Assembly (NCBI GenBank): GCA_964505635.1
Contig: CAZDIP010000003.1
Coordinates: 15,313 to 79,312, forward strand
Length of the DNA: 64,000 bases
Direction: 5' to 3'
Source of the DNA: an uncultured Candidatus Saccharibacteria bacterium
Lineage (GTDB): Bacteria > Patescibacteriota > Doudnabacteria > UBA920
Shown one piece after another: positions 8,898 through 57,793 of the stretch. The notes under the pieces were generated by a model. That model did no database searches. It was not told the DNA's origin and saw only the letters and a list, made by a program, of their open reading frames with translations. The position numbers were made by a program, and so were the translations under genes. Position 1 is the stretch's first letter, and each line of letters starts with the position of its first letter.

Positions 8898-9941
8898 TTA
8901 CATTTCATTAAAAATTTTTGGTTTTAAATCCTTTCTATAAATTTCCAACAAGGTTACAAAAACTGCCATTATAATTGGACCGAACAAAAAACCCAAAAAT
9001 CCGAACAATTTAATCCCTCCTAAAATAGAAAGCAAAACCAACAAAGGATGCATCTGCATTTTTGAACCTACAATCTTAGGACTAACCACATTATCAATTA
9101 ACCCCACGGCCACACTACCCCAAATAGCCATACCTATTGCAGCACCTGTGTGTCCGGTAAACAACAAAAATAAAACAGCGGGAAACCAGGCTAAAGTTGT
9201 GCCTACCGTCGGAACCAAAGCAGCCAAAACAGTAAAAGCTCCCCATAAAATTGGCTGCGGCACACCAAAAATTAAATAACCAAGAGTTGCCACCACCCCT
9301 TGAATTAAGGCTATTAAAAACGAGCCCTTAACTACTCCGGAAACTGCTGTCTCTAGCTTGTCAAACAAAGTTTGGTCGTAAACATCAGAAAGAGGTGAAA
9401 TTTCCCTGAACATTTGTTTTATTTTTTCCCCGTCGCGCAAAAAGAAAAATAAAATAAAAATCAACAAAAACAAGGACAAAAAAAAGCTGGCTAGATTGGA
9501 AAGCAAGCTGGAGACCAAATCAAACGCGCTCCCCGTTAACTTGGAGACTATGGCATTTAAATCATTGCTCAGGCTGGTTAAAATATTTTGCAACAAAACC
9601 GGCAAGCGGGAAAAAATTTCAGCTTTGCTAAAAATTAACTCTCCTAAACGAAACTTGTTGTACACCTCTACTATTTCATTAAACAAAAGTTGACCTACAA
9701 ACCATAAGGGCAAAATACAAATTAAAATTACTAAAAAAATTGTAATAATCGCGGAAAGGTTGGGACCCTTAAACTCACTTTGCATTTTTTTATACAGGGG
9801 GTGAAAAAGTACGGCAAAAATGCCGGCCAAAACCAACATTTGCCAAAACGGCCAAATTATAAGTACGGCGACAATTGAAGCCAAAGTCAAAAAGGCAAAA
9901 AAACCCATTAGTTGTTTATTATTGTTTTTAGCGGTTGTCAT
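8898..9941 (-). CDS. AI-2E family transporter (PerM/UPF0118-like) membrane protein
   Basis: About eight TM segments, a length of 347 aa, and the typical C-terminal GLIDNVVSPKIVG region. Confidence 0.55.
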   Translation of the reverse strand: MTTAKNNNKQLMGFFAFLTLASIVAVLIIWPFWQMLVLAGIFAVLFHPLYKKMQSEFKGPNLSAIITIFLVILICILPLWFVGQLLFNEIVEVYNKFRLGELIFSKAEIFSRLPVLLQNILTSLSNDLNAIVSKLTGSAFDLVSSLLSNLASFFLSLFLLIFILFFFLRDGEKIKQMFREISPLSDVYDQTLFDKLETAVSGVVKGSFLIALIQGVVATLGYLIFGVPQPILWGAFTVLAALVPTVGTTLAWFPAVLFLLFTGHTGAAIGMAIWGSVAVGLIDNVVSPKIVGSKMQMHPLLVLLSILGGIKLFGFLGFLFGPIIMAVFVTLLEIYRKDLKPKIFNEM

Positions 9942-9990
9942 ATTTTATTTCGTTTCACAAATTTTATACCAATTATATTATATCAAATTA

Positions 9991-11899: not shown

Positions 11900-11909
11900 T
11901 TTTAAATTT

Positions 11910-11934
11910 AAAGGCTCACATAATGTGAGCCTTT
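11910..11934. terminator. hairpin after typA (weak intrinsic terminator)
   Basis: AGGCTCAC-ATAAT-GTGAGCCT stem. The U-tract is short on both strands. Confidence 0.35.
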
Positions 11935-11943
11935 AAAAAATGC

Positions 11944-12330
11944 CTATTTTATGGGTAATTTATAATATACTTCCCTGCCCCTTTCGTTAACCCGAATAAG
12001 CTTACCTAAATCAGTTAAATATTTTAAATAGCGGGTAGCAGTAGCATCGGAAACTTTTAAACTTTGCTGGACTATGTCGTTAGTTAATTGAGAATGTTGT
12101 AAGGCTAGTTTGATAATTTTATCCAGGTTTTCCCGACATTTTTTTATAGCTTCTGCATTTAAAGGGTTATCGGAAAAATCATCAATTTTACCGTCCCTGT
12201 AAAACAAAGCCGCGAAGCCCGCCAAACCAAAAATTGCCAAAATAAAAGCGGCTTTTAAATTCACCAAGGCTAAAAGCAAAACCCCGAAAGCAAAAAGAAT
12301 CTGCCATTTAACTTGTTGTTTAAATATCAT
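11944..12330 (-). CDS. membrane-anchored winged-helix DNA-binding protein (hypothetical regulator)
   Basis: Two N-terminal TM helices followed by a C-terminal wHTH-like segment (SDATATRYLKYLTDLGKLIRVNERGREVYYKL). Confidence 0.4.
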   Translation of the reverse strand: MIFKQQVKWQILFAFGVLLLALVNLKAAFILAIFGLAGFAALFYRDGKIDDFSDNPLNAEAIKKCRENLDKIIKLALQHSQLTNDIVQQSLKVSDATATRYLKYLTDLGKLIRVNERGREVYYKLPIK

Positions 12331-12416: not shown

Positions 12417-12914
12417 TTATTTGCCCGCAAGCAAAAGACTCGGTTCAGCGACCAGGCACATAGCCTGGTAGTGTACGGTTACCCTAAGGATACCGCTTTT
12501 GAAAGCTAGACTGTTCCTCTTCTGTTCTCTGACGGGGTTTACGCACTCGTGTTCAATAACCAGCCGGCTAGTAGCCCGGTTAAGAATTCGCAGAAAAACT
12601 CGCCCAACGGCGTTACTTCGTTTTTGGACAACTAAAGTCTGCCGAGTGTCAGGCCGTTCCATAACAAAGTCATACACCGCCAGGGTCTTGTCAGAAACCG
12701 CCCCGAGCGCCCAAAGCGTGCCTAGACTTGACAGCGCGGTCGGGGCAAGCAAAAAGTGCCCAGCCAAAACCTCAAAGCCGTTTTCATCTAGCCTCACAAC
12801 CACCTTGCCGTCAACCTGCGCCTGCCTCGCCAATGGCGGAAATTCCAGATTTTGTACCAAAGCGTCTTGCCCGAAAGCAAGAAAAGTAACCAAGAATACG
12901 CTAAGCAGCCTCAT
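12417..12914 (-). CDS. secreted protein with TonB C-terminal-like motif, in a compositionally foreign (GC-rich) segment
   Basis: Strong SD (AAGGAGG 7 nt from the ATG). Signal peptide MRLLSVFLVTFLAFGQDA. FPPLARQAQVDGKVVVRLDENG resembles the TonB_C YPxxAxxxxxEGxVxV motif. GC is about 50% against about 35% in the flanks. Confidence 0.45.
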   Translation of the reverse strand: MRLLSVFLVTFLAFGQDALVQNLEFPPLARQAQVDGKVVVRLDENGFEVLAGHFLLAPTALSSLGTLWALGAVSDKTLAVYDFVMERPDTRQTLVVQKRSNAVGRVFLRILNRATSRLVIEHECVNPVREQKRNSLAFKSGILRVTVHYQAMCLVAEPSLLLAGK

Positions 12915-12982: not shown

Positions 12983-13948
12983 CTATTGCGCTCCTGTCGG
13001 GGTTGGGGTTGGAGTTACTGTAGGAGTTGGTGTTGGAGTTGTAGAAGGCGGAGTTGAACTTGCATTTCCAGTTGCCGTACAATTTTTTTGGTTTGCTTTT
13101 CTGGTATCACTCGCGGTTTTGGTTGCTGCTTTATAGGCATCATTTGCGGCCTTAACAGCGGCGTTATACTTTTCGTTAGCTGCTTTTACCGCGGCAACAT
13201 AAGCTTCATTTGCAGCTTTCATTGCTGCTTTGTAAGTGTCTGAACTTGTTCCAGCAGCTGCCTTATAGGCTTCGTTTGCGGCTTTTACTGCTGCCTCATA
13301 TTTTTCGTTTGCGGCTTTTACTGCAGCTTCGTAAGCAGCTTTAGCAGCGGTAATGCTTTCTGGCGTGGAGCTTGCGTTTAAAACATTATTTAGAACAGTT
13401 TTAGCCGCTTCTATTTCTGCTTTTCTGGTATTTTTAGCATTTTCTATGGCTGTATTGCGAGTTGTTTTTAAAGTACTATTAGTAGTGGTGCTGGTGCCTG
13501 TTGCCTGGGAACGAGCAGATTTTCTGGTTTCTAAAGCAGTTTTTAATTCTGTCTGTCTGGTTTCTCTAGCTTTTTTTAAAGCTTCCGAACGAACTTCTTT
13601 GGCGGCTTTGGTAGCTTCCGAATAATTTTCATTCACATCTTTATTTTGTTCTCTGCAGATTTTTAAGGCTTCTTTCTGCTGTTCTGCCTTCTTTTTTGCT
13701 TCTTCTCTTCTGCTTTCGGCTTCTTTTTTCATAGCCTCAGCCTTTTCTTCCATTAAATCCTTCAATTCTTCCCGCTTTTTTTCCATTTCCTTTTTATAGG
13801 TTTCAGACTCACTTTGCATTGAAGTCTTAATTCCTAAAATTCTACCTTCTATTTCCTGCACTGGAGTTGCCATTGCAGAAAACGCCGGCAAAACCAAACC
13901 TGCGGAAACGGCAGCGGCTGCGGCGATCTTGAATATTTTATTACGCAT
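12983..13948 (-). CDS. secreted coiled-coil repeat protein with Pro/Thr-rich C-terminal tail
   Basis: Signal peptide (MRNKIFKIAAAAAVSAGLVLPAFSA). A K/E-rich coiled-coil. Repeated AAVKAANEKYEAAVKAANEAYKAA units. A TPTPTPTVTPTPTPT tail. Confidence 0.55.
   Translation of the reverse strand: MRNKIFKIAAAAAVSAGLVLPAFSAMATPVQEIEGRILGIKTSMQSESETYKKEMEKKREELKDLMEEKAEAMKKEAESRREEAKKKAEQQKEALKICREQNKDVNENYSEATKAAKEVRSEALKKARETRQTELKTALETRKSARSQATGTSTTTNSTLKTTRNTAIENAKNTRKAEIEAAKTVLNNVLNASSTPESITAAKAAYEAAVKAANEKYEAAVKAANEAYKAAAGTSSDTYKAAMKAANEAYVAAVKAANEKYNAAVKAANDAYKAATKTASDTRKANQKNCTATGNASSTPPSTTPTPTPTVTPTPTPTGAQ
13120..13350 (-). repeat. in-frame tandem DNA repeats (about 48-nt units) encoding AAVKAANE(K/A)Y repeats
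   Basis: Repeated GCTGCTTTATAGGC.TC.TTTGCGGC.TT.AC.GC units are visible in the sequence. Confidence 0.5.
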
Positions 13949-31775: not shown

Positions 31776-31804
31776 TTGACAAAATTGTTAAAATAATGTA
31801 TAAT
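31776..31804 (+). promoter_or_regulatory. exact consensus sigma70 promoter TTGACA-N17-TATAAT facing the GC-rich cassette
   Basis: TTGACA at 31776-31781, a 17-nt spacer and TATAAT at 31799-31804. Confidence 0.45.
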
Positions 31805-31830
31805 ATATATTTAACTAAATATTTGTGCTT

Positions 31831-31864
31831 AAAAAAATAGGCTTATTCATAAGCTTGGTTTTTT
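31831..31864. terminator. A-run/hairpin/U-run element (bidirectional intrinsic terminator or leader attenuator)
   Basis: AAAAAAAT-AGGCTTA-TTCA-TAAGCTT-GG-TTTTTT. It lies between the promoter and the first ORF of the cassette, at the AT-rich/GC-rich boundary. Confidence 0.4.
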
Positions 31865-31986
31865 ACACGCAAAGCCTGTATGGGTGTGTGTAAATGCGGC
31901 AGGGTTAACAGCCCTGACTTAAGAGTTTGTTGTTAAGGAGGATCAGGTTTATGCCTGAATCCACCCTGTAGCAACGGCTCCAGAAA

Positions 31987-32565
31987 ATGTTTGACAGTAT
32001 ACGACGGGAAAATAACCGCCCTCTCGTTCTCCCTAATATGCCCAATTTGCATATCGTGGCGCTCTCAGCACCTCCCCTCATGACTCCTGGCGCGACTGTT
32101 ATGTCGGAATTTACGGCAGACAATGTCGCGAGAATCGTTCATGCGTCTAACCTGCGTGAGCAGGTACAAGACGCTAAACTGGTGTTGAATGGGGAAAGCA
32201 ACCAACTCACCATGATGCTGCACATCGCGCTTAAGTGCGGGGTGCCGGCAAACTTCATTGAGCTGGTAGACTGCAACCCGCGCCCCAACGGAAATACTCG
32301 CACACAGCTCCAAAAGATGGAAAAAGACCTGCGCTTCCCGCAGGATGGCTACTATGTGTTTGTGACCGTTTCGTGGCATATGCCACGGGTTATCGCGACC
32401 GCCCGCAAACAACTCAAGCGGCTTGCCAACCATATGGTCGTCGGCGTACCGTACGCTGATTTCCACGACTTTGACTGGAACGAAAAGGTCGCCGACGAAA
32501 TGTGGCGCATCCCCCAATACATCAACAAGGGAGACATTGCCGACCCGACAATCGGCATGGAGTAG
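31987..32565 (+). CDS. DUF218 (YdcF/ElyC/SanA family) domain protein, GC-rich foreign-like gene
   Basis: Order LHIVALSA, KLVLNGES, CGVPANFIELVDCNPRPNGNTRTQ and YVFVTVSWHMPRV matches the DUF218 core pattern vvvLGG, vvsGG, GVp...ie..S.nT.eNa and vvVTs..HmpRa. GC is about 53%. Confidence 0.5.
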   Translation: MFDSIRRENNRPLVLPNMPNLHIVALSAPPLMTPGATVMSEFTADNVARIVHASNLREQVQDAKLVLNGESNQLTMMLHIALKCGVPANFIELVDCNPRPNGNTRTQLQKMEKDLRFPQDGYYVFVTVSWHMPRVIATARKQLKRLANHMVVGVPYADFHDFDWNEKVADEMWRIPQYINKGDIADPTIGME

Positions 32566-32571
32566 CCACCT

Positions 32572-33237
32572 ATGCTCCCTCCTCGTGATAAGAACGGTTT
32601 TCAAGTCATTGCCTCGAGCGCAGGCGTGAAAGTGGAAACCTGTTTTGCTGAATTCAATGTCCGGCAGCAGACTGCTGCCAACGGACAAACGGAAACGTGG
32701 GGCCGGCTTATAACCCGTCCTGCGTTTGAAGTCGCGTTGCTTGCAAAGGAAGACGGCGAAACCAAAGTTCTCCTTATGCAAAAACAGCGCCTCGCGGGCG
32801 AACCCCCGGTCACTAAATGTCCGGGCGGATACATCTTCTTAAAAGGCAGCGAACTCAACTTGGACAACTTCCTGTCTAAGATCCTTGGCGGCGGATTCGG
32901 CTCTGTTGACCTGTATGACGTTCTGCCTTTCGGTTCGTTCATTGAAGAACGAATGTTGTCCTTAGGGATCTGTACTAACTTTACAAACATGCAGCTCTTT
33001 GGCTGCGTGGTAGGTCACGGCGAAATCATTACCCCCATTCTCCTGCTTGCCACCAACAAATGGCAACAGGTCGCGCCCCCGCCAGAGGGCATATCTTTCC
33101 GCAAAATGCTTCTTTCGGAAGCGGCGCGCCTGGCAGTGCAAACCGTCCAGATAGGCCGACGGATGAAAGATGCGCTTGACAGCGACAGCAGCGTGGAGCT
33201 GCTATTGTCGCTGTACGCCAAAGAACAGCTCCGCTAA
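32572..33237 (+). CDS. hypothetical protein with weak NUDIX-fold-like pattern (degenerate Nudix box), GC-rich foreign-like gene
   Basis: KVLLMQKQR...CPGGYIFLKGSE...ILGGGFG resembles the strand-loop-helix of a Nudix fold but lacks the REx2EE glutamates. SD GGAG sits 9 nt upstream. It lies 6 nt after the upstream gene. Confidence 0.3.
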   Translation: MLPPRDKNGFQVIASSAGVKVETCFAEFNVRQQTAANGQTETWGRLITRPAFEVALLAKEDGETKVLLMQKQRLAGEPPVTKCPGGYIFLKGSELNLDNFLSKILGGGFGSVDLYDVLPFGSFIEERMLSLGICTNFTNMQLFGCVVGHGEIITPILLLATNKWQQVAPPPEGISFRKMLLSEAARLAVQTVQIGRRMKDALDSDSSVELLLSLYAKEQLR

Positions 33238-33242
33238 CTATA

Positions 33243-33288
33243 ACCGCGGCTTGAATGCATCCCACAAGATGACAAACAAGCCGCGGCC
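33243..33288 (+). other. 10-bp perfect inverted repeat with 26-nt loop immediately after cassette gene 2
   Basis: CCGCGGCTTG ... CAAGCCGCGG. Confidence 0.4.
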
Positions 33289-33308
33289 AAACTCTTTACT
33301 AACTTTGC

Positions 33309-33330
33309 CCGGCTTTAAGGCCGGTTTTTT
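33309..33330 (+). terminator. intrinsic terminator of the GC-rich cassette; the hairpin spans the stop codon of the convergent EEP gene
   Basis: CCGGC-TTTAAG-GCCGG followed by TTTTTT. Confidence 0.5.
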
Positions 33331-39763: not shown

Positions 39764-41097
39764 AAGGCTTTATAAACCTCTCGTCTTATTTTTTTAAAAC
39801 ATATTGCCGCCACAAGCGGAATGCAATAAGAAATTACAGTCGCCCAAGCGCTGCCGACAATGCCAAATTTTGGTATAAAAAACAAGTTCAAGGCAATATT
39901 TACAAAAGCCCCTAATACCGTGGATACAAAATATACTTTTGAATACCCTTCTGTAATTAAATATTGCATCAGTGCGGCAGTTAAAAAAACCGGCACGCCC
40001 GCCCATGCGTAAATTTGCAAAGGTTTTACCGCATGCAAATAAGCCTGTCCGTAAATAATCAAAATAATAGTTTTTGAAAACAAAAAAATAAAAACCGCTA
40101 TGCCTAAAGAAAGCCAAAACATCAACTTATATAAATAACCAAGTCGTTTAAAATAAAAATTTTCTCCGGTTTTTTTGGCATTTACTATGGCCGGAAAAAG
40201 GGACGCGCAAATAATATTGGGGATAAAATACCATATTTCAGAAAGTTTGACCGCGACGGCATATATTCCTACCTGGAGATCGCTTAAAATAAGCTTGATC
40301 ATGGTTTGGTCAATTTTCATATAAATACTGGTCGCTACTGTGACAAACATTAAAGGCCAGGAGTTTTTTAACAATAAAATTATCAACGGCTTGTCAAAAC
40401 TCCAACTAATTTTATTTTCTTGTCTCTTATAGAAATACCATAATATAAACCCCGAGACTATAGCGTCTAAAACATAATTCAAAGTCAACCAAATTACTCC
40501 TTTATTGAAATAAATTACCAAGAGTTTAAAAATCGTGGATACTAAAGTAACTATAACCTGCATTTGAAAAAGCTTTTTTGCCAGAACCTGAGACTGAAAA
40601 TAAATGCTCAAAACTCCGGACACCTGAAAAAGAAAAGTCAGGGAAAAAAGAAAAATTAAAATCCTTGCCAAATAAGAATTTGGGATAAAAAAAGCAGAAA
40701 TGTTTATAGCCGCCACAGCGAAAATTCCACCAATAAACTTTATCCAAAAGCCATTCCCTATAAGAATGTCGCGTCTTTCCGGAAATTTTATCAGTTCCCT
40801 ATTTAAAATAGCGTCAATACCAAAACCTGACAAAAAAGCAAACAGACCCGAAAAACTGACGGCGTAATTTAAAATACCGTATTTTTCCGGGCCCAAATAC
40901 CGAGCTACCATTGCGCCTATAAAAAACGCGACCCCCATATTAAGCATTTGGCCAACAAACATCCAGCCGGTATTTTTCAAATAACGCTTAAAACCTTCAT
41001 GGTTTTTTAGTCTATTGTAAAAATCCGCAAACCAAAAAATAACATTATTATATTGGTTAGAGATGAACGATTGATTATTTTCCATAAAATTTACCAA
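39733..41097 (-). CDS. wzx: oligosaccharide flippase (Wzx, MOP superfamily)
   Basis: About 12-14 TM segments, a length of 454 aa, and a position within the polysaccharide locus. Confidence 0.65.
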   Translation of the reverse strand: MVNFMENNQSFISNQYNNVIFWFADFYNRLKNHEGFKRYLKNTGWMFVGQMLNMGVAFFIGAMVARYLGPEKYGILNYAVSFSGLFAFLSGFGIDAILNRELIKFPERRDILIGNGFWIKFIGGIFAVAAINISAFFIPNSYLARILIFLFSLTFLFQVSGVLSIYFQSQVLAKKLFQMQVIVTLVSTIFKLLVIYFNKGVIWLTLNYVLDAIVSGFILWYFYKRQENKISWSFDKPLIILLLKNSWPLMFVTVATSIYMKIDQTMIKLILSDLQVGIYAVAVKLSEIWYFIPNIICASLFPAIVNAKKTGENFYFKRLGYLYKLMFWLSLGIAVFIFLFSKTIILIIYGQAYLHAVKPLQIYAWAGVPVFLTAALMQYLITEGYSKVYFVSTVLGAFVNIALNLFFIPKFGIVGSAWATVISYCIPLVAAICFKKIRREVYKALWQKQTASVI

Positions 41098-41336
41098 TCT
41101 TTTACTTTATCCTTTGTTTTACTTTTAATTCTCTGGTAAGTTTCTACTGCCCTTTGTTCAAACACCGGCGAAACTAAACGCAAAATCTCATGTCCCATTA
41201 TTCGGTACTGCTTGCCAATTTTATTTGCCCTTAATAAGCCATTCTTAAGCATGCGTTTAATGGTGCTGTTGCTTATTTTTAAAAGCGCCTGGGTTTCTTT
41301 TGGCGTATATACTTGATTGGGTTTTATTTCAGACAT
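41091..41336 (-). CDS. excisionase-family (Xis/MerR-like) helix-turn-helix DNA-binding protein
   Basis: VYTPKETQALLKISNSTIKRMLKNGLLRANKIGKQYRI matches the HTH_17/excisionase-family consensus. It overlaps the wzx start by 7 nt. Confidence 0.55.
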   Translation of the reverse strand: MSEIKPNQVYTPKETQALLKISNSTIKRMLKNGLLRANKIGKQYRIMGHEILRLVSPVFEQRAVETYQRIKSKTKDKVKDW

Positions 41337-41421: not shown

Positions 41422-42396
41422 CTACTGGCACAATTCCTTAAAAATATCTTCCAAAGAGTATTTGTAATCCCACTTTGGGTAGTCTTTGCGAAATTTAGTT
41501 GAATCGTGAACGTCCCATTGCCTATCGCCTTTTCTAGCTGGTTCAAAATATTCCACCTTTGCTTTTTTGCCGGTTTGTTTTTCTATAAAATCTATTGATT
41601 CTTTAACTGAAACGCTCCGCTCTGGGCCTCCCCCTATATTATAAACCGCTGCAATTTTTGGCTGCTGAATAAAATGGTAAAAAGCGTTTATTAAATCGTG
41701 CGCGTGGATTTGGTCGCGCACTTGTTTGCCCTTAAAACCATATAAATTAAAAGTCTCGCCGTTTTTTATGCATTTTGTAAGCTGAGCCAAAAAACCATGA
41801 TATTCGGACCCTTCATGCTGTCTTCCGGTAATGCAGCCCGGCCTGAAACAAGCTGTTTTCATGCCAAAATAGTAGCCATATTCCTGTACATACAAATCCG
41901 CCGCAGTTTTAGAACAGCCGAACAAGCTTCTCATTGTCGTGTCTAAAGGTAAAGACTCGTCATACGGGCTATCGTGATGCCACCTGGTGTCGGTCTCTGC
42001 CAAATTTTCCCGCTTCATATGCTCGCCATACACTTTGTCAGTGGAAACATGGACAAATACCACATCAGGGCAATGTTTTCTTGCTGCTTCCAATAAAATT
42101 AACGTACCCCGGGCATTGACGTCAAAATCCGTTAGGGGCTCATTTTTTGCCCAATCATGGCTAGGCTGGGCAGCGGCATGGATGATTGCGTCAAACTTTA
42201 CCTTGGAAAAAAGCTCGTTTATAGCCTTTTCATCGCGAATATCTATTTCATACTGCGGACTTTTTTTGGGCGTGCCAAAAAAATATGAACGCATGTTGGC
42301 ATCCAGCCCATGAACTTCCCACCCTTTGTCGGTAAAAAATTTTACGGCTTCAGACCCGACAAGCCCGGTACTGCCGGTAATAAGTATTTTTTGCAT
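41422..42396 (-). CDS. NAD-dependent epimerase/dehydratase (SDR); the start is probably MQKILITG, whereas the ORF track begins 15 codons upstream at a GTG
   Basis: ILITGSTGLVGS Rossmann motif, VSTDKVYGE, and YVQEYGYYFGMK (YxxxK). Confidence 0.65.
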   Translation of the reverse strand: MQKILITGSTGLVGSEAVKFFTDKGWEVHGLDANMRSYFFGTPKKSPQYEIDIRDEKAINELFSKVKFDAIIHAAAQPSHDWAKNEPLTDFDVNARGTLILLEAARKHCPDVVFVHVSTDKVYGEHMKRENLAETDTRWHHDSPYDESLPLDTTMRSLFGCSKTAADLYVQEYGYYFGMKTACFRPGCITGRQHEGSEYHGFLAQLTKCIKNGETFNLYGFKGKQVRDQIHAHDLINAFYHFIQQPKIAAVYNIGGGPERSVSVKESIDFIEKQTGKKAKVEYFEPARKGDRQWDVHDSTKFRKDYPKWDYKYSLEDIFKELCQ

Positions 42397-42460
42397 TTTT
42401 TGCTTATTTTTTAGATTAAAATATCTACTAAATAATATCACTTTCTAAAAAATTCTACTA

Positions 42461-42489
42461 TTGACAAATGTTGTAATTTTTGATATAAT
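42461..42489 (+). promoter_or_regulatory. exact consensus sigma70 promoter with extended -10 (TTGACA-N17-TGaTATAAT)
   Basis: TTGACA at 42461-42466, a 17-nt spacer ending in TGA, and TATAAT at 42484-42489. Confidence 0.45.
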
Positions 42490-42539
42490 ATGTAGTTTTC
42501 AGTTGAAATTCCAATATTATATTAGAGGAGGATGCAATT

Positions 42540-43160
42540 GTGGAGTTGAGAAGAAGGTTGGAGAGGGTTATCCTTGAAAACCCGATGTTTGAGTGGGACT
42601 GGAGAAAGTCTCGTGAGCAGCGGCGAGCTGTACACGAACTTTTTTCCACGCCAATACCTCCCAGCGCAAACCCCAAAGGTGGAGTGAGCCGAGAGGTCTA
42701 CTACGGCTTCAAGGAAGGCTGCGCTACAGCAAACGCGGACATGGTCGTCTGCACCCGCCTTGAAACCGGTGAGTGCGCTGTCCTGGCACTTCATAGGGAC
42801 CCAGGCACACCGTTTGGCGGGGTATGGGATATGGGCGGCGGGGCAATCCTCGCCTACCAGGCAATCGCTGATTGCCTAAAAGCCAAATCCCAAAAAGAAA
42901 CCGGTCTCACCCTAGAGCCCGAGGCGCTGTTAGGCTGCTACCGCAACGACGCGCCCGACATGGCGTCAAGCGTCATCGCGCTGTGCTACGTTGCCACAGC
43001 ACCAGTGCAGCAGCTTCAATCAGTGGTTGCCGGGGACGGCAACCACAAGTGGCAATTTTTCACTTTGGCAGACCTGGAGAATCTGCCAGCGAACCAGACC
43101 TACTGGTATGCCATGTATGTCTGGCGCAAGGTCTTAGAGGCCGCGCCACGCGTCCTCTAA
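42540..43160 (+). CDS. NUDIX-fold-like protein with degenerate Nudix box, GTG start, GC-rich foreign-like gene
   Basis: SD GAGGAGG lies 7 nt before the GTG. AVLALHRD...FGGVWDMGGGAILAYQAIADCLKAKSQKETGL follows the Nudix pattern vLLvqR..G.W.lPGG.vE.GE...A.REl.EEtGl, but with the REx2EE glutamates replaced. HKWQFF sits at the usual C-terminal Trp position. GC is about 57%. Confidence 0.4.
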   Translation: MELRRRLERVILENPMFEWDWRKSREQRRAVHELFSTPIPPSANPKGGVSREVYYGFKEGCATANADMVVCTRLETGECAVLALHRDPGTPFGGVWDMGGGAILAYQAIADCLKAKSQKETGLTLEPEALLGCYRNDAPDMASSVIALCYVATAPVQQLQSVVAGDGNHKWQFFTLADLENLPANQTYWYAMYVWRKVLEAAPRVL

Positions 43161-43183
43161 ATCAACAACCCCAAGCAACAAAA

Positions 43184-43218
43184 GGCCGACGCTTTCAGCG
43201 CCGGCCTTTCTCATTTTT
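43184..43218. terminator. GC-rich intrinsic terminator after cassette 2, likely bidirectional (it also follows fcl)
   Basis: GGCCGACGC-TTTCA-GCGCCGGCC followed by TTTCTCATTTTT. Confidence 0.5.
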
Positions 43219-43225
43219 AAAATTT

Positions 43226-44164
43226 TTATACCTGATTTTTTATATACCAGTCTATAGTCTTTTTTAGGCCTTCGGCCAAACCAGTTTTAGCTCTAAACCC
43301 AAAACCTTTTGCTGCGCGCGAGACATCGGAAACCCTTCTCAAAGCCCCCTCAGGCTTGGTTTTATCCCACACCAATTTTCCTAAAAAGCCAACATGTCTG
43401 GCAATAGTTTCCGCCAAAATTTTTATTTTTTCTTCTTTGCCGCTGCCTATATTTACAGGCTCGGGGTCTTCATATTTTTCAGCGGCGAGTACAGTAGCCC
43501 TAGCCGCGTCTTCCACATACAAAAATTCCCTGGTTGCCTTGCCGCTGCCATACATGACTATTTCCTCTGTGCCGCTGTTTTTTGCCTCAATAAATTTCCT
43601 TATAAGCGAGGCTACCACATTGGCATGGGCTAAATCAAATTCATCGCCCGGACCGTACATATTAGTGTACAGCAAATTTATACCCGTAAACTTATGCTGA
43701 AGCCTATAGGCTAAAATTTGGGCGGCTAATAATTTTTTGGAAAGCCCGTAAGAAGCATTGCCCGCTTCGGGCAGTCCATTCCAAAAATTTTCTTCCTTAA
43801 ATGGGATACTGGTATGCTCGGGGTAACTGCTGACGGTACCGCCGATTAAAATTTTCTTTACCCCTTCCTTATATGCGCTATCTATAAGGTGCAGACCCAT
43901 AACCGCGTTGTCGTAAAAAACTTCAGCCGCGTGCTCTAAATTATACTTAACGCCGTCAAAATTGGCAGCCAGATGAATAACCAAGTCCTGGCCTTTTACT
44001 GCATAGCGGCAATTAGCCGGAACCCTTAAATCCAGCTGAGAAGACCTTGGACGGTCAATATTTTTTTTTGGCACGCCGCGCCTAAGCAATTCCTGATATA
44101 CATGAGAGCCTAAAAACCCATGGCCGCCGGTTAAAAGTATTTTTGATTTTTTTAAATTTATCAT
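43226..44164 (-). CDS. fcl: GDP-L-fucose synthase (GDP-4-keto-6-deoxymannose 3,5-epimerase/4-reductase)
   Basis: KILLTGGHGFLGSHV, YGLSKK (YxxxK), and Fcl-like length and motif order. Confidence 0.7.
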   Translation of the reverse strand: MINLKKSKILLTGGHGFLGSHVYQELLRRGVPKKNIDRPRSSQLDLRVPANCRYAVKGQDLVIHLAANFDGVKYNLEHAAEVFYDNAVMGLHLIDSAYKEGVKKILIGGTVSSYPEHTSIPFKEENFWNGLPEAGNASYGLSKKLLAAQILAYRLQHKFTGINLLYTNMYGPGDEFDLAHANVVASLIRKFIEAKNSGTEEIVMYGSGKATREFLYVEDAARATVLAAEKYEDPEPVNIGSGKEEKIKILAETIARHVGFLGKLVWDKTKPEGALRRVSDVSRAAKGFGFRAKTGLAEGLKKTIDWYIKNQV

Positions 44165-53342: not shown

Positions 53343-56300
53343 CTAATTCAAGGAAAGACCCTGAGAGTCAGTAGGAATAGTTCTTACATAGCGGCCATTG
53401 GTCCAGTCATCCGAGCTGCTTGACCCAGCGGTGTCGCTGTGAGAAGTAGCGGACATATCGGACCAAATGAAGTTATAAGCTGCGGTGGCGGCTTCCATGT
53501 CGTTACCAACGTTGTTGGTATCGTCCTGGTCACGCAATTGCTGCGCGGCAGCCAAAGTGCTTAAGTCACCGGTAACCGCGGCGGTGTCAGTCGTGGCAAT
53601 AGAAGTCGTGACCGAATCGCCGGTATCAGCGCCAGCGACCGTGGCTTTGAAGTCATAGGTCTTGGAGCTGCCGGAAGTAATAAGTTCTTCCGAGTTAAAG
53701 GTGATATCAACAGTAACCGAGCCTGCAGCATAAGTAGCTGAGCTGGTTACGGTTAAGTTGCTTCCGCCCTGCGGGGCAATGGCAAAGGAAGACAAAGACA
53801 CGCCGGTAGTGGAAGAGCTGGTGAAGGTAATATGCTTAAGAGCAATATCATTATCAACAGCAGTCACTTTAAAGCGGTACAAAGTCTGGGTGCCGTTACC
53901 CAAAGAGCTGGTCATAGCCACGGTTTCTACTTTCGGCTGGCTCTTTCTTAAGACAACATAGCTGCCTACATAAGAACCGCTGGAAGGAGCAGTCAAAGTG
54001 GTAGAACCGGAAGTGCCGCGAACCTCAAAGTTGTTGCTGCCGTCAAGCCAGACAGCGAATTCATCGCCGCTGTCAGCACCATTGGAAATAGTGTTAAGGT
54101 CAGCTTTAACAGTTAAGTTCTTGCTGGCATCCTTGCCGATTATAAAGTCGGCGGTCATGCCGGTAAAGTCAGCATAGCCTTCAATGGTGCCGGACGGAGT
54201 CAAAGACACCGGACCTGCGACCAAGGTGCTGCCGTCATACAAGTAGAGGGCAGTAATGTCGTCGGCTATATTGGCTGCCGAAGCGGCTGTGGAGCTGGCT
54301 GTGGCAACCGCAATGCGGGCTTTGGTCAGCTTAAGCTCTTCGTTAACCGCGGTAAAGCGGATTTTGCCCAAAGTTACACCGGTTTTACCAGCAGTAACAA
54401 TGCGGGCGTCAGTAACATCCTGTTCGTTGTTACCAGCTGTGGCGACCGTAATGGTGCCGGCGCCGGTAATGGTAATGGCGGTACCAACCGTAGTGGTGGT
54501 GCTGCCGTTAACCGGATAGCTGGTGCTATCGGTTACGCTGTTACCGTCAGGATCAACCGCAGTAATGCTGGAAGAAGCAATTTTCCATTTGATAACATTG
54601 CTGGAGTTGGCGGAGTTTGAAATGGTCATTTTAACCACCAAAGTCTTGCTGCTACCTTTCGGAACTACCCAGTTAAGACCGTTGAAGGTCATAGTACCGG
54701 CAGTGGAAGGAGATTTAGTCTGGCCGATTTTGGTCGCGCCGTCGTAAAGCTCAACAGTTACCACGTTGTCAGACACATAAATTGTGCTGGCAGAGGCGTT
54801 GGTAGTGCTGCCATCAGCCATGGTGGCTGCGGCCGCGGAAGCTATCATACCGGTTAAGGTAAGGTCGGTGACTTTTACGTCAGCCGCGGTAGAAGCGGTA
54901 AAGACATAGCCAGCTGCTTCAACCATGGTGCTGCCTTTGACAAAGGACTTGGAAGTCGGAGTAGCGGCCAAAGCAACAGTCAAAGAAGGAACCCTAACTG
55001 TCATTTGGTTACCTGAAATGTCAGAGGTAGGCACTATGTCAGTGGAGGTTAAGAAGGTGTTGTTGTCAGTGTTCTTAACGTCGTTGGAAGTTAAGCTGTC
55101 AACATCCAAAGTGGCGCCAATTACGTCGCCGGAAGTAACATCGGAATTGTTGGCAACATCCAAAGTAACCTTATAGGTTTTGGAAGTACCGGCGGCCAAA
55201 AAGACGTCTTCCGTAAAGGTAAGAGTCTGAGAGGTGGCGCTGCCTGTGCCGGACAAATCCTGAGGCCCGAAAACTACGGCGCCGGTTGTGGCGTCTACGA
55301 CTTTTACGTCGGTGTAGTTAGGGGTGGTATTGTCGTTAAAATCAGCAGTACCGCTGCCGCCGTTGTTGAACACAAAGGCCAACTGGCGGATTTCCAAGTT
55401 GTTCTGGGCAGCCATGGTGAAGTTGAAAACTTCAACATCTTTGCCGTTCTTGGCAATATCCTTGGCAGACGGACCGTTAAAGGTAATGGTCAACTGACCA
55501 CCTTCAACGTAGCTGTAAGAACAGTCGCCGGAAGAAGAAGTACAGCTGTCGCCGTCATAATCCGTAGAGGTAACAGCAGTGCCAAAACCATAGGTCTGGC
55601 CTACCGCGAACAAGTCGGTAGATTCTTCTAAGTAGAATTTGACGGTTTCGGAAGAACCCGTGCGGGAACCGCCGGAAACGTTGGCGTAGACTTCAAAAGT
55701 CTTGGTATCGCCCTTGGCTAAGGCAAAGTTAACTTCAAAGTTAGCTTTGTCTTCGCTGTCTAAGGCAGCTACGGTGGCTAAGGTGTTGCCGGCCTGCTTT
55801 AAGACCAAATTGGTCAAGTTAGAGCTGGCAACAGCGCCGCCCTGGTAAAGAGAAATTCTCTTAACCACGACGTCTTCGGAAGAGCTGGCGGCCAAGGTAA
55901 AGGAACCTACTCTGACATTCTGCTCACCAACTTTAGGGTTGGTAATGCTGCCGGTTTTGGCAATAGTGACAGTACCGGATGAAACACCGGCGAGAGTCAT
56001 GCTGTTGCCGCTGGCAGTGCCGCTGGCCTGGGTTGAACCAAGCATAACGGAAGTCACCATTAACTGGTGAACATTGCCCGCTGTGGCGGAAGAATAAATA
56101 TCAGCCAATACGTCCATGGTAATGGATCCGCCGGCCGGAACATTCACGTTAAGGCCGGAGAACACCGCTTCGTTGGTGGAAGAGTTAACACTGCGTCCAG
56201 AGGTTAATCTGGAAGCGCCCTGGTAAAGGTAAACGTTGGTCAGGTCCGAAGTGGAACCCGCGCCGGTGCGTTTAACTGTAACCTGGTTAACTGTGGCAGC

Positions 56301-57137
56301 TGAAGTGCCGCCGTTGTAAACCACAAACTTAAGGAAGTTAACATTGGTGGCTCCTTTGGGAACAGTGGAAGGCGGAGTCTGGTTAGAGGCCGCGCCGACG
56401 GTGACTGAACCCGGAGTCGGAGAAGGATTCTGGGGGTTAGAAGTCCAAGAAGGAGAAAGTTGTCCTAATTGGCGGGCGACCATTACGCCGGAAACCGGCC
56501 AGGTCTGAGTGGCGGCGTTAGCCGGCACTGCCTTGCTAAAGGAATAGCCCCAGGAATTGAAAACTTCGTTGCTCGGAATGCCAAGCAAGCTGTTGGCGCC
56601 TACTAAGAAATAGGTTTTATTACCGTTATAGTTGAAATAGGTAATAACACCGGTTCTTAAGGCAGCAGTGGTGTTTTCAATGTTGGAATCGGCCGACAAG
56701 AAGGAAACATCGCCGCTCATGGCGTTAGCAAAGCTAAAACCAAGCCCGGTGAAAACTTCTTGGGACACGAAACCGGCTTTTTTGCCGTTGGTTATAAGGT
56801 AGCAAGTACCTTGGTCAGGGGATCTATCGGAACAAATGATAGAACCATCCTGAGGGGGAATAAAGCCAGCCGGGTCAACCGGTAAGGCTAAATCGTCGGC
56901 GTTAGCAGTCTGTACGGTGGCAAACGAGTTGAAACCGTAAGACAAGAAAGCGCCGCCGGAAGTGTAGGCGCGGCGGGTATTGCTGGAAGTAATCATCCAG
57001 ACAGTACCGTCAGAAGTAATGACATTGGTTCCGGCCGGGTGGGCAGCAGCTTGTGCTACCAACGGAGCAGCCAAAGACATGGTCATTGCAACCGCAGATC
57101 CTACAGCAAAGAGTTTCTTTGCAACAGAATTTTGCAT
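53343..57137 (-). CDS. giant secreted Ser/Thr/Gly-rich cell-surface protein (S-layer or adhesin-like), 1264 aa
   Basis: Signal peptide MQNSVAKKLFAVGSAVAMTMSLAAPLVAQAAA. Very high T/S/G/A/V content with repeated beta-rich (Ig-like) segments. It is preceded by a long AT-rich leader of about 580 nt. Confidence 0.6.
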   Translation of the reverse strand: MQNSVAKKLFAVGSAVAMTMSLAAPLVAQAAAHPAGTNVITSDGTVWMITSSNTRRAYTSGGAFLSYGFNSFATVQTANADDLALPVDPAGFIPPQDGSIICSDRSPDQGTCYLITNGKKAGFVSQEVFTGLGFSFANAMSGDVSFLSADSNIENTTAALRTGVITYFNYNGNKTYFLVGANSLLGIPSNEVFNSWGYSFSKAVPANAATQTWPVSGVMVARQLGQLSPSWTSNPQNPSPTPGSVTVGAASNQTPPSTVPKGATNVNFLKFVVYNGGTSAATVNQVTVKRTGAGSTSDLTNVYLYQGASRLTSGRSVNSSTNEAVFSGLNVNVPAGGSITMDVLADIYSSATAGNVHQLMVTSVMLGSTQASGTASGNSMTLAGVSSGTVTIAKTGSITNPKVGEQNVRVGSFTLAASSSEDVVVKRISLYQGGAVASSNLTNLVLKQAGNTLATVAALDSEDKANFEVNFALAKGDTKTFEVYANVSGGSRTGSSETVKFYLEESTDLFAVGQTYGFGTAVTSTDYDGDSCTSSSGDCSYSYVEGGQLTITFNGPSAKDIAKNGKDVEVFNFTMAAQNNLEIRQLAFVFNNGGSGTADFNDNTTPNYTDVKVVDATTGAVVFGPQDLSGTGSATSQTLTFTEDVFLAAGTSKTYKVTLDVANNSDVTSGDVIGATLDVDSLTSNDVKNTDNNTFLTSTDIVPTSDISGNQMTVRVPSLTVALAATPTSKSFVKGSTMVEAAGYVFTASTAADVKVTDLTLTGMIASAAAATMADGSTTNASASTIYVSDNVVTVELYDGATKIGQTKSPSTAGTMTFNGLNWVVPKGSSKTLVVKMTISNSANSSNVIKWKIASSSITAVDPDGNSVTDSTSYPVNGSTTTTVGTAITITGAGTITVATAGNNEQDVTDARIVTAGKTGVTLGKIRFTAVNEELKLTKARIAVATASSTAASAANIADDITALYLYDGSTLVAGPVSLTPSGTIEGYADFTGMTADFIIGKDASKNLTVKADLNTISNGADSGDEFAVWLDGSNNFEVRGTSGSTTLTAPSSGSYVGSYVVLRKSQPKVETVAMTSSLGNGTQTLYRFKVTAVDNDIALKHITFTSSSTTGVSLSSFAIAPQGGSNLTVTSSATYAAGSVTVDITFNSEELITSGSSKTYDFKATVAGADTGDSVTTSIATTDTAAVTGDLSTLAAAQQLRDQDDTNNVGNDMEAATAAYNFIWSDMSATSHSDTAGSSSSDDWTNGRYVRTIPTDSQGLSLN

Positions 57138-57719: not shown

Positions 57720-57793
57720 TGGTCGGGATGCTGGGAATTGAACCCAGTCTACCTGCTCCCAAAGCAGGCGTACTACCGGTATACTACATCCCG
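57720..57793 (-). tRNA. tRNA-Pro (anticodon TGG), CCA encoded
   Basis: The reverse complement folds as: acceptor CGGGATG/CATCCCG; D arm GTAT-ACCGGTA-GTAC; anticodon stem CCTGC/GCAGG with loop TTTGGGA; T arm CTGGG-TTCAATT-CCCAG; terminal ACCA. Confidence 0.8.

Follow-up and report, generated by a model that had tools for sequence, protein, structure and literature searches.

Between two minus-strand sugar-nucleotide genes of the window (the whole 64-kb stretch of DNA that was analysed) lies a plus-strand gene which, judging from the signals around it, is an autonomous transcription unit. Its sigma-70-type promoter is found at 42461..42489 (plus strand), with the -35 element TTGACA at 42461-42466, a 17-nt spacer and the extended -10 element TGaTATAAT at 42481-42489. 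Promoter scoring gave a 12/12 consensus match, the TG motif included. Perfect TTGACA-N17-TATAAT occurs only three times within the 64 kb, this promoter being one of them. When one mismatch is allowed, 6 matches were observed in the window against 0.58 expected, and 6 or more were seen in 0/100 shuffles. The leader (42496..42539, plus strand; about 45-50 nt, with the start deduced from the -10 element) carries the motif GAAATTCCAAT at 42505-42515 and the Shine-Dalgarno (SD) sequence GAGGAGG at 42525-42531. A riboswitch or other leader RNA was considered and rejected, because an Rfam search of the leader gave zero matches and folding of 42496..42539 detected no significant structure (z -1.45). 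A GTG start codon at 42540, 8 nt past the SD, opens a 206-aa coding sequence (42540..43160, plus strand) for a divergent Nudix-fold protein that resembles GDP-mannose mannosyl hydrolase.

The gene is followed at 43181..43218 by an intrinsic terminator element on both strands, common to the Nudix-like gene (plus) and the convergent Fcl-like gene (minus). An inverted-repeat search placed a GC-rich hairpin with 13-bp arms (AAAGGCCGACGCT/AGCGCCGGCCTTT) at 43181-43209, with an A-tract upstream and a T-tract downstream; both strands would read a hairpin and a U-run. Folding energies were -18.0 kcal/mol on the plus strand (z -5.1) and -26.3 kcal/mol on the minus strand (z -4.4), matched by 0/200 shuffles, and the terminator scan gave a terminator-like match on the minus strand. 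By its A-tract/hairpin/T-tract arrangement the hairpin is a predicted bidirectional terminator. The preliminary description, which had raised the question of minus-strand read-through at the hairpin, was right about the promoter, the leader of about 50 nt, the 206-aa ORF and the hairpin with its T-run. Its GAGGAGG-N7-GTG start region was borne out as to SD and start codon, but the spacing is 8 nt and not 7.

The convergent neighbour (43226..44164, minus strand) is an Fcl-like SDR gene resembling GDP-L-fucose synthase: it scores 222.8 bits with the NCBIfam model GDPFucSynFcl, under the 500-bit cut-off, and its best solved structures are GDP-L-fucose synthases (E 4e-46). On the other side lies a second SDR gene (41422..42396, minus strand; 324 aa from the ATG at 42396), which matches Pfam Epimerase with 156.6 bits and whose best solved structures are those of CDP-tyvelose 2-epimerase (9rl0 and 1orr, E 1e-35). 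Of the flanks described earlier as fcl and SDR, the first thus stands, and the second is now refined as CDP-tyvelose 2-epimerase-like. A minus-strand extended -10 element, TGATATTAT (42432..42440), is the likely SDR promoter and stands back-to-back with the Nudix promoter. It is conserved in the intergenic alignment with a related metagenomic genome, L001, whose minus strand reads TGCTATTAT and has a promoter-like TG-TATTAT match at 9918..9890. As predicted from these signals, the extended -10 sigma-70 consensus would yield a transcript with the leader of about 45-50 nt, the strong SD and GTG start would direct synthesis of a 206-aa cytoplasmic protein, and the GC-rich hairpin would stop both this transcript and the convergent Fcl-like one. 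SDR gene transcription would restart from its own extended -10 promoter.

The ORF is 57.3% GC (GC1/2/3 = 0.61/0.46/0.65), against a window mean of 39.4%, 41.6-43.2% in the flanking genes and GC1/2/3 of about 0.44/0.33/0.38 in the host genes used for comparison. A GC content this high is reached by only 0.07% of 621-bp windows (z 3.6). The composition changes in a step at the start codon and again just past the hairpin. About 57% GC had been reported for a 760-bp segment, which is true of the ORF but not of the AT-rich promoter and leader (42380-42539, 15-30% GC). Relative synonymous codon usage (RSCU) of the Nudix-like gene correlates at -0.05 with the genome's own genes, at 0.14 with a highly expressed surface-protein gene, and at 0.30-0.37 with its orthologue in L001 and genes from GC-rich loci. 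It prefers CTC/CTG, GTC/GTG and ATC; the surface-protein gene uses TTG/CTT, GTT and ATT. The protein is rich in Ala, Arg and Pro and poor in Lys, Ile, Asn and Phe, as is typical of high-GC proteins. Replication-strand bias was rejected as a cause of the codon usage: C/(C+T) reaches no more than 0.41-0.45 in other plus-strand genes, and their G/(A+G) is low. The foreign-like composition noted in the preliminary description is therefore confirmed in GC at all codon positions, codon usage and amino-acid content. Such deviation from the host at all codon positions, not explained by expression, would mark the gene as a xenologue.

Abrupt GC steps at the borders of an ORF could also arise if a GC-rich fragment of another organism had been joined into a low-GC contig, an assembly artefact that had been named as a possible source of the GC shift. 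The chance of such a chimera is negligible. Window positions 42451-43832, which include both composition junctions, recur with 100% identity in an independent Logan assembly (L006); five samples yielded the orthologous locus in an identical arrangement; and promoter, SD and terminator are coherently placed around the ORF.

The orthologue in L001 (57% aa identity) occupies exactly the same site. Its flanking genes are 84% (SDR), 77% (Fcl-like) and 54% (another gene) identical to those of the window. The L001 promoter (9919-9947) also scores 12/12 with TG and has the same place as in the window, the leader motif GAAATTCYAAT and the SD are conserved, the AT-rich promoter and leader DNA is homologous, and an analogous A-tract/hairpin/T-tract terminator is present. 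Between window and L001, the genes on either side have reached saturation at synonymous sites. Together with the shared site, promoter, SD and terminator, this means that the gene is not a recent insertion. A dN/dS of 0.26 between the two orthologues indicates that it has been kept at this site by purifying selection.

The preliminary description had interpreted the gene as a foreign-composition cassette interrupting a same-strand operon. Its autonomy, atypical GC and codon usage, and strand opposite to its neighbours all agree with a recent foreign or mobile (moron-like) expression cassette splitting a same-strand polysaccharide operon, as do a strong SD where such sites are otherwise scarce in the window and another GC-rich unit at 31776-33330 that also has a perfect promoter and would be its sister at 31.8 kb. 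Such a recent arrival is very improbable, and is largely refuted by the syntenic L001 orthologue, which at 57% protein identity has the same site, the same leader motif and the same promoter and terminator, even though flanking synonymous sites are saturated. The conserved extended -10 promoter of the SDR gene likewise contradicts the splitting of an operon. The promoter and leader are AT-rich DNA of native type, and the upstream region of the native surface-protein gene has the same perfect consensus. Terminal repeats are absent, and a repeat search found no significant direct or inverted repeats flanking the unit. Searches of phage, plasmid, viral-contig and defence libraries returned nothing but one negligible PADLOC match (16 bits), and the gene appears functionally cognate with its neighbours. 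Lacking repeats and mobile relatives, and conserved in position in L001, it does not qualify as a mobile cassette, moron or insertion element. A homologue at the same position with native-like composition had been named as evidence against a foreign origin; a homologue at that position was indeed found in a relative, yet it is still GC-rich. An empty-site search of 60 SDR-bearing metagenome loci (ten of them at 60-74% identity) detected none with a Nudix-like gene; the genes around the SDR are wholly different there, however, and so these loci have no bearing on insertion.

The second unit, cassette 1 (31776-33330, plus strand), has a perfect TTGACA-N17-TGTATAAT promoter, GC-rich ORFs and a GC-rich hairpin terminator. 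It resembles the Nudix unit in being a plus-strand unit inside a minus-strand glycan cluster, with ORFs of 53% GC, GC3 of 0.60-0.65 and codon usage like that of GC-rich genomes. It differs in its leader of about 140-180 nt and in its two ORFs, which encode a DUF218 protein and a 221-aa orphan. The 221-aa protein has no detectable homology to the Nudix-like family (hhalign probability 0.2%), an orthologue search for it found none, and its single-sequence AlphaFold model (pLDDT 36.5) is unusable. The same design had been claimed for both units. They do share the perfect promoter type, but this is also present upstream of the native surface-protein gene, and the promoter type is therefore native. 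A third GC-rich block at 53.3-57.1 kb was rejected as a cassette: it is the minus-strand gene of a 1264-aa surface protein, and its GC content results from the Thr/Ser/Ala/Gly-rich composition of that protein.

The Nudix-like gene probably came from a GC-rich donor and was acquired before the lineages of the window and L001 separated. The old import would now be expressed from native-type AT-rich signals. Its orthologue is GC-rich in L001 as well (56% vs 44%), and the two share a GC3 of 0.652. For a transfer older than a split that saturated flanking synonymous sites, neutral drift should have pulled GC3 well below 0.65 in both lineages; the old-transfer explanation does not account for this persistence. 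The GC-richness might instead be native, with the gene very highly expressed and selection on codons, mRNA or amino acids holding a gene-specific GC-rich equilibrium in both lineages. Equal GC3 despite differing backgrounds and saturated flanking synonymous sites fits such an equilibrium. So do the two-fold pyrimidine codons, at which C/(C+T) is 0.76, close to the 0.67 of the highly expressed surface-protein gene (ordinary genes: 0.21-0.45), and a four-fold GC of 0.59, only slightly above the 0.52 of the flanks. The consensus promoter and strong SD of the Nudix-like gene, and the same perfect promoter type at the surface-protein gene, point the same way. Native GC-richness is nevertheless unlikely. 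Overall synonymous codon usage is unlike that of the surface-protein gene (r = 0.14, with this one gene as the high-expression reference), and GC1, GC2 and amino-acid composition are of the high-GC type. In addition, the gene of a family member on a 35% GC contig (L082) has 32.7% GC, which shows that a high GC content is not imposed by the protein itself.

The AlphaFold2 model of the 206-aa protein (pLDDT 95.2) confidently adopts an alpha/beta/alpha Nudix fold, consisting of a Nudix core, an N-terminal extension and a single C-terminal helix. Model and profile comparisons uphold the earlier NUDIX-like call, with the Nudix box degenerate. Across 31 family members only G101, E120, G122 and a hydrophobic residue at 123 are retained from the box; position 116, normally Glu, is Arg in 23/31, and position 119, the first Glu of EE, is Lys/Arg in 20/31. 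The sequence departs from the canonical GX5EX7REUXEEXGU pattern, its RE positions being Glu/Lys and Arg, and the canonical metal-binding glutamates have been lost as judged from the family alignment. Pfam NUDIX matches the family weakly, and among NCBIfam models, those of Gmm included, no family was found at E <=0.01. Among 1.84 billion representative proteins, 63 sequence clusters match the family.

GDP-mannose mannosyl hydrolase of E. coli (Gmm) employs an Arg on the substrate, a Mg2+-binding Glu, a Tyr, and a His as general base, and its R52 and R65 contact the GDP leaving group. In the Mildvan/Amzel studies H124, which precedes a late beta-strand, is reportedly catalytic, and R37 and Y103 are said to be functional residues. 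Profile alignment of the Nudix-like family with Gmm (hhalign probability 85.5%, E 5.7e-6) pairs R86, G100-G101, E120, Y150 and H169 with Gmm R37, G50-G51, E70, Y103 and H124. [quoted passage not shown] E120, H169 and R86 are each conserved in 31/31 members and Y150 in 28/31, and D67 is near-invariant. The reduced Nudix box thus keeps its last Glu, E120, at the place of Gmm E70, and H169, R86 and Y150 supply the His, Arg and Tyr in the alignment. A counterpart of R52 was not found among the 31 members by hhalign (position 102 is Ala/Ser/Thr), and R65 is not matched, the conserved basic R/K116 being offset by one residue. In the aligned sequences the Arg, Glu, Tyr and His which GDP-mannose mannosyl hydrolase uses for cleaving the glycosidic bond of GDP-hexoses are retained. 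Loss of Nudix-box residues combined with glycosidic-bond cleavage is a hallmark of GDP-sugar glycosyl hydrolases (PMC5389931).

When solved structures were searched with the sequence profile, the non-catalytic Nudix domain of NrtR ranked first (E 2.2e-7), and the top Foldseek matches include this domain (E 7.9e-8) and AraR. A non-catalytic Nudix-fold ligand-binding module like the NrtR/AraR effector domains, which would act as a nucleotide-sugar sensor and, by binding, modulate the partner epimerase or some other protein, would fit these matches, the degenerate Nudix box, the tight linkage to one enzyme family and the gene overlap at one locus (L082), which suggests translational coupling. It is an improbable role, however: catalytic or substrate positions of GDP-mannose mannosyl hydrolase fall on three invariant residues of the family (E120, H169 and R86) and two nearly invariant ones (Y150 and D67), strict invariance of Glu and His is typical of catalysis, and the model ends in a single helix with no DNA-binding domain.

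The tyvelose-2-epimerase-like SDR is the conserved partner of the family. Six loci have sufficient flanking sequence (window, L001, L007, L008, L009 and L082). Each is a polysaccharide cluster, and in each the family member adjoins an SDR gene or lies one gene away from it. [quoted passage not shown] The SDRs in L007, L008 and L009 are 32-34% identical to that of the window (L008 and L009: 32%), and in L082 the Nudix-like and SDR genes overlap by ATGA. The pairing is not obligatory, since ten closer SDR relatives (60-74% identity) have no Nudix-like gene nearby. The two 157-aa ORFs near the family members of L001 and L008 are unrelated. Against genome contigs, the SDR query reached at best 48-49% identity, in MAGs of Acidobacteria, Gemmatimonadota and Bacteroidota, and a search with the Nudix pair gave nothing close.

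SDR relatives also occur in 0.1-um-filtered Hainich groundwater metagenomes, and the gene content of the window includes PilB, transketolase/transaldolase and Wzy_C-TPR proteins. From these the host would appear to be an ultra-small, CPR-like groundwater bacterium.

Enzymes of the tyvelose-epimerase family interconvert CDP- or GDP-glucose and -mannose (PMC13098431, PMC12188384, PMC7851689). The Nudix-like protein may hydrolyse an NDP-hexose to NDP and free sugar, as its residues suggest, and candidates for this NDP-hexose are the compounds that the adjacent tyvelose-2-epimerase-like and fucose-synthase-like enzymes consume or make. Such hydrolysis could tune or proofread the nucleotide-sugar pool that feeds the surface glycan, by analogy with gmm beside gmd-fcl in the colanic acid cluster of E. 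coli; the Fcl-like neighbour parallels the E. coli gmd-fcl-gmm order. Most likely the protein is an enzyme that cuts back nucleotide-sugar pools in the service of the cell-surface sugar pathway encoded around it. Taken as a whole, it is fairly probable that the locus is a compositionally foreign single-gene unit, an old import under purifying selection that encodes a Nudix enzyme like GDP-mannose mannosyl hydrolase.

A more far-reaching proposal, which is doubtful at present, is that the Nudix-like family and the tyvelose-2-epimerase-like SDR form an undescribed two-enzyme module, that selection holds GC-rich units off the host composition, and that maximal-strength signals offset foreign codons. 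If true, a glycosyl hydrolase of the GDP-mannose-mannosyl-hydrolase type would act on the substrate or product of the epimerase, making the pair a 'hydrolysing NDP-hexose 2-epimerase' or a pool-proofreading pair. Other small GC-rich units of the window would likewise be held by selection in an AT-rich, SD-poor genome.

The family defines a small unannotated Nudix subfamily with GDP-mannose-mannosyl-hydrolase-like residues and a conserved tyvelose-2-epimerase-like partner. This gives genes that automatic annotation labels at most 'NUDIX hydrolase' a concrete function open to testing, and could supply glycan biochemistry with a new sugar-nucleotide hydrolase. The locus is also a clean case of a foreign-composition gene that stays GC-rich at one site across a divergence saturating neighbouring synonymous sites, which makes it useful for testing how fast acquired genes drift toward host composition. 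Otherwise it is an ordinary accessory gene of a polysaccharide cluster.

Phage morons are horizontally acquired islets of a single gene. The Nudix unit resembles these and other single-gene islets in having one ORF of atypical composition with its own promoter and terminator amid another transcription unit. It differs in lying outside any prophage or mobile element, in lacking relatives among viruses and plasmids, in using a promoter of native-type AT-rich DNA, in being conserved in position in a distant relative and in having a predicted function that matches its neighbours. With the NrtR/AraR effector domains (PDB 3gz5, 3gz8, 5bs6) the protein shares a degenerate Nudix box, and they are its best profile match and a top Foldseek match. 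Unlike NrtR it has no winged-helix DNA-binding domain, the alignment covering the Nudix domain of 3gz5 only, and unlike both effectors its family keeps Glu, His and Arg invariant, as a set corresponding to the active site of a hydrolase. From E. coli Gmm (NudD/WcaH) it is distant: identity is 14-18%, there is no NCBIfam match, the Nudix box is more degenerate still, and no equivalent of R52 exists. Gmm has 159-160 aa, while the window protein reaches 206 aa, extended N-terminally by about 60 residues and ending in a long C-terminal helix. The SDR with which it is paired resembles tyvelose 2-epimerase and is not Gmd, and the gene lies on the strand opposite to its neighbours as its own transcription unit. 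It is nonetheless like Gmm in its Nudix box without most glutamates but with the last Glu kept, in the aligned Arg, Glu, Tyr and His, and in its location beside an Fcl-type enzyme and a second sugar-nucleotide SDR in a surface-polysaccharide cluster.

As the preliminary description stated, the 206-codon, GTG-start Nudix-like ORF (42540-43160, +) is preceded by a TTGACA-N17-TGaTATAAT promoter and followed by a hairpin with 13-bp arms (43181-43209) and a T-run. The -35 element TTGACA is at 42461-42466 (+) and, with a 17-nt spacer, the extended -10 at 42481-42489 (+), a 12/12 consensus match with the extended -10 TG. The Shine-Dalgarno (SD) sequence GAGGAGG (42525-42531, +) is also present, but it lies 8 nt, not 7, ahead of the GTG at 42540. 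Transcription would run from about 42496 to the hairpin, which would terminate transcription on both strands. The perfect promoter, strong SD and strong terminator suggest high, insulated expression, and such signals may compensate for the poorly adapted codons of the gene.

The description of the segment as GC-rich holds for the ORF (57.3% GC; GC1/2/3 = 0.61/0.46/0.65) but not for the AT-rich promoter and leader (15-30% GC), and the composition step is therefore at the start codon and just past the hairpin. The window mean is 39.4%, the two flanking genes have 41.6% and 43.2%, and only 0.07% of 621-bp windows are equally GC-rich. The gene prefers CTC/CTG, GTC/GTG and ATC, while background genes and the highly expressed surface-protein gene use TTA/TTG/CTT, GTT and ATT instead. 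In RSCU it correlates at 0.37 with its orthologue on L001 (a metagenomic contig from a related genome) and at 0.30-0.33 with genes or homologues of GC-rich loci; against the background and the surface-protein gene the values are -0.05 and 0.14. The protein has an amino-acid composition of the high-GC type. It does not force high GC, because the homologue on metagenomic contig L082 is encoded at 32.7% GC (GC3 0.185). The best reading is a xenologous origin from a GC-rich donor. Replication-strand bias was considered as a cause of the codon composition and rejected as too small an effect.

The L001 orthologue, P0002 (57% identity), is found on this 34.8-kb contig at exactly the same site, between the orthologues of the SDR gene (84% identity) and of the Fcl-like gene (77%) and on the opposite strand. 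Upstream of it are a perfect TTGACA-N17-TGATATAAT promoter, a leader in which the motif GAAATTCYAAT is conserved, and an AAGGAGG SD; downstream is a terminator of A-tract, hairpin and T-tract. The minus-strand extended -10 of the SDR gene (TGnTATTAT) is likewise conserved in L001, and five samples yielded an identical L001 assembly. Between the window and L001 the flanking genes have reached synonymous saturation (pS 0.80-0.89) and their identical-codon frequency is not above chance (z 0.2-1.1). The Nudix-like gene itself has pS 0.65, pN 0.30 and dN/dS 0.26, and a weak synonymous signal is still left in it (z 2.3). The same site, the saturated flanks and this dN/dS show that the gene already occupied its position, under purifying selection, ahead of an old split; it was acquired long ago and has been domesticated. 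The preliminary description was right about foreign composition, as seen in codon usage and GC, but recency, mobility and disruption did not stand. A recent mobile cassette is effectively excluded by the position conserved across saturated flanks, by the absence of terminal repeats flanking the gene and by the lack of relatives in phage, plasmid and viral collections. An assembly chimera, the artefact considered earlier, is effectively excluded as well, since an independent Logan assembly is 100% identical over 42451-43832 and spans both junctions.

Homologues of native-like composition at the same position would have spoken for a native gene. L001 does hold a homologue there, but its composition is not native-like: both orthologues have a GC3 of 0.652, compared with 0.36-0.42 in the window background and 0.43-0.54 in that of L001. 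That this high GC3 was kept in both despite full synonymous turnover in the neighbours is the remaining puzzle, and a rival explanation is a native GC-rich equilibrium maintained by selection. Four-fold-site GC of the gene is near that of its flanks (0.59 vs 0.52) and the excess sits in two-fold codons, with C/(C+T) of 0.76. In the surface-protein gene this ratio is 0.67, the one codon trait the two have in common. Foreign ancestry may therefore be overlaid by some selection at synonymous sites, such as selection for expression, as judged with one gene as the high-expression reference.

The surface-protein gene (53343-57137, -; GC 0.51) encodes a Thr/Ser/Ala/Gly-rich secreted protein of 1264 aa without a Pfam domain, probably of surface-layer type. 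Its amino-acid content explains its GC, and the 53.3-57.1 kb block was rejected as a foreign GC-rich unit. Upstream of it, at 57698-57670 (-), is the third of three perfect TTGACA-N17-TATAAT sites in the 64 kb; sites with at most one mismatch number 6 in the window against 0.58 expected, a count reached in 0 of 100 shuffles. This promoter type is therefore native to the genome, and the design common to the Nudix-like gene and cassette 1, another GC-rich unit, cannot serve as a foreign mark. The promoter is about 530 nt upstream of the surface-protein start and just downstream of a tRNA gene (57723-57793), which implies that the 5' leader is very long or that the promoter serves a small transcript of its own.

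The other GC-rich outliers are cassette 1 (31776-33330) and a 165-aa ORF (12417-12914, -). In cassette 1, a perfect TTGACA-N17-TGTATAAT promoter (31776-31804, +) and a leader of ~140-180 nt without an Rfam match precede a DUF218 ORF (31987-32565, +) and a 221-aa ORF (32572-33237, +), behind which lies a GC-rich hairpin. Among 5.8 billion proteins there is no homologue of the 221-aa protein, which also yielded no usable structure model. The leader has a AAGGAGGA SD ahead of an ATG (31951) that shares the frame of the DUF218 ORF, but a TAG at 31969 separates the two; recoding, an early nonsense mutation or a uORF of 6 codons could account for this. The 165-aa ORF (GC 0.518, GC3 0.548) has a signal-peptide-like N-terminus, a strong AAGGAGG SD immediately past the upstream gene's terminator, and a motif, FPPLARQAQVDGKVVV, that by eye resembles a TonB C-terminal domain. 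It has no Pfam, PHROGs, PADLOC or solved-structure match, and its exact sequence is absent from a 15-billion-protein collection.

Upstream regions of 54 ORFs show that most window genes have no recognisable SD and A/T-rich upstream DNA. Strong SDs occur only at the Nudix-like gene, the 165-aa ORF, its neighbour (12983-13948) and the first ATG of the cassette 1 leader. Their confinement to GC-rich, foreign-looking genes and one neighbour suggests that SD-independent initiation would be the norm in this organism.

Of the neighbours named in the preliminary description, fcl is indeed Fcl-like (43226-44164, -): its best solved-structure matches are GDP-L-fucose synthases (E 4e-46), with an NCBIfam score of 222.8 bits, under the cut-off. 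The other SDR (41422-42396, -) is more precisely closest to CDP-tyvelose 2-epimerase (9rl0 and 1orr, E 1e-35). Enzymes of that family turn CDP- or GDP-glucose into its mannose epimer (PMC13098431, PMC7851689, PMC12188384). The three genes belong to a glycan cluster of ~25 kb, whose other genes include those for glycosyltransferases, a wzx-like flippase, Wzy_C proteins and a UDP-GlcNAc 2-epimerase as well as RmlC/RmlD-like ones. Wherever the contig of another family member is long enough (L001, L007, L008, L009, L082), that member is likewise in a polysaccharide cluster with an SDR adjacent or one gene away. The SDRs of L007, L008 and L009 have the window SDR as their closest counterpart (32-34% identity), and those of L007 and L082 best match CDP-tyvelose 2-epimerase (E 2e-105 and 2e-43). 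In L082 the SDR and Nudix-like genes overlap by ATGA, suggesting translational coupling. The two genes need not occur together: in groundwater and other metagenomes, ten SDRs closer to that of the window (60-74% identity) have no Nudix-like gene nearby and wholly different neighbourhoods.

Several side observations concern these clusters. On L082 (35% GC) the SDR, a Nudix-like gene of fully native low-GC composition and a DUF5662 gene all run in one direction as a compact operon (92-2209, +). In more distant SDR relatives (L024, L025, L026, L029, L030), many from 0.1-um-filtered Hainich groundwater, another conserved partner precedes the SDR, a ~196-aa protein distinct from the Nudix-like one, whose opening motif GGLGNxxFQxAYI by eye is like family-11 fucosyltransferases. 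Between the SDR and flippase genes of the window is an 81-aa HTH_17 (excisionase/MerR-like DNA-binding) gene (41091-41336, -), with a counterpart in L001 (7737-7982, -; 65% identity), which could be a local regulator of the glycan cluster. L001 has another small opposite-strand gene wedged into the cluster, a 157-aa ORF without a Pfam match (11689-12162, +) between the Fcl-like and glycosyltransferase genes, a junction of only 43 nt in the window. It is unrelated to the GC-rich 157-aa ORF beside the L008 family member.

Members of the Nudix-like family are rare. Among 5.8 billion proteins a word-indexed search returned only the protein itself and P0002, and when 1.84 billion cluster representatives were searched exhaustively with HMMER, 63 clusters matched at E <=1e-3, mostly of ~200 aa. 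NCBIfam, PHROGs and PADLOC searches gave nothing useful; the Pfam NUDIX match is weak yet over threshold (27.7 bits, cut-off 21.1). AlphaFold2 with a 31-member alignment gave a Nudix-fold model with a pLDDT of 95.2. In that alignment P40, R86, G100, E120 and H169 are invariant, and D67, T72, G77, G101, Y106, G132, C149 and Y150 nearly so. The canonical Nudix box is mostly lost, with only G101, E120, G122 and a hydrophobic residue at 123 surviving; at the 'RE' glutamate position 23/31 members have Arg, and 20/31 have Lys or Arg in place of the first 'EE' glutamate. A non-catalytic, NrtR-like ligand-binding protein is a rival reading. GDP-sugar glycosyl hydrolases have also lost Nudix-box residues, and they cut the glycosidic rather than the pyrophosphate bond (PMC5389931); in E. 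coli GDP-mannose mannosyl hydrolase (Gmm, WcaH) R36/R37 is a key substrate residue (PMC10037897).

The family profile was compared with Gmm, from the annotated E. coli K-12 gene, using hhalign (probability 85.5%, E 5.7e-6). In literature numbering (translated sequence + 1), the family/Gmm pairs are R86/R37, G100-G101/G50-G51, E120/E70, Y150/Y103 and H169/H124, and family position 168 (Asp, Asn or Gly) pairs with Q123. The role of H124 as general base of Gmm, and those of E70 and Y103, follow the Mildvan/Amzel work. With H169 as base and an E120-bound Mg2+, the enzyme would hydrolyse an NDP-hexose at sugar C1, and would tune or proofread the nucleotide-sugar pool of the adjacent epimerase and synthase. 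The gene is a new, uncharacterised Nudix-superfamily variant with Gmm-like features. R52 of Gmm is without a counterpart in the family and the equivalent of R65 is off by one residue; the gene layout in the window is reminiscent of E. coli gmd-fcl-gmm.
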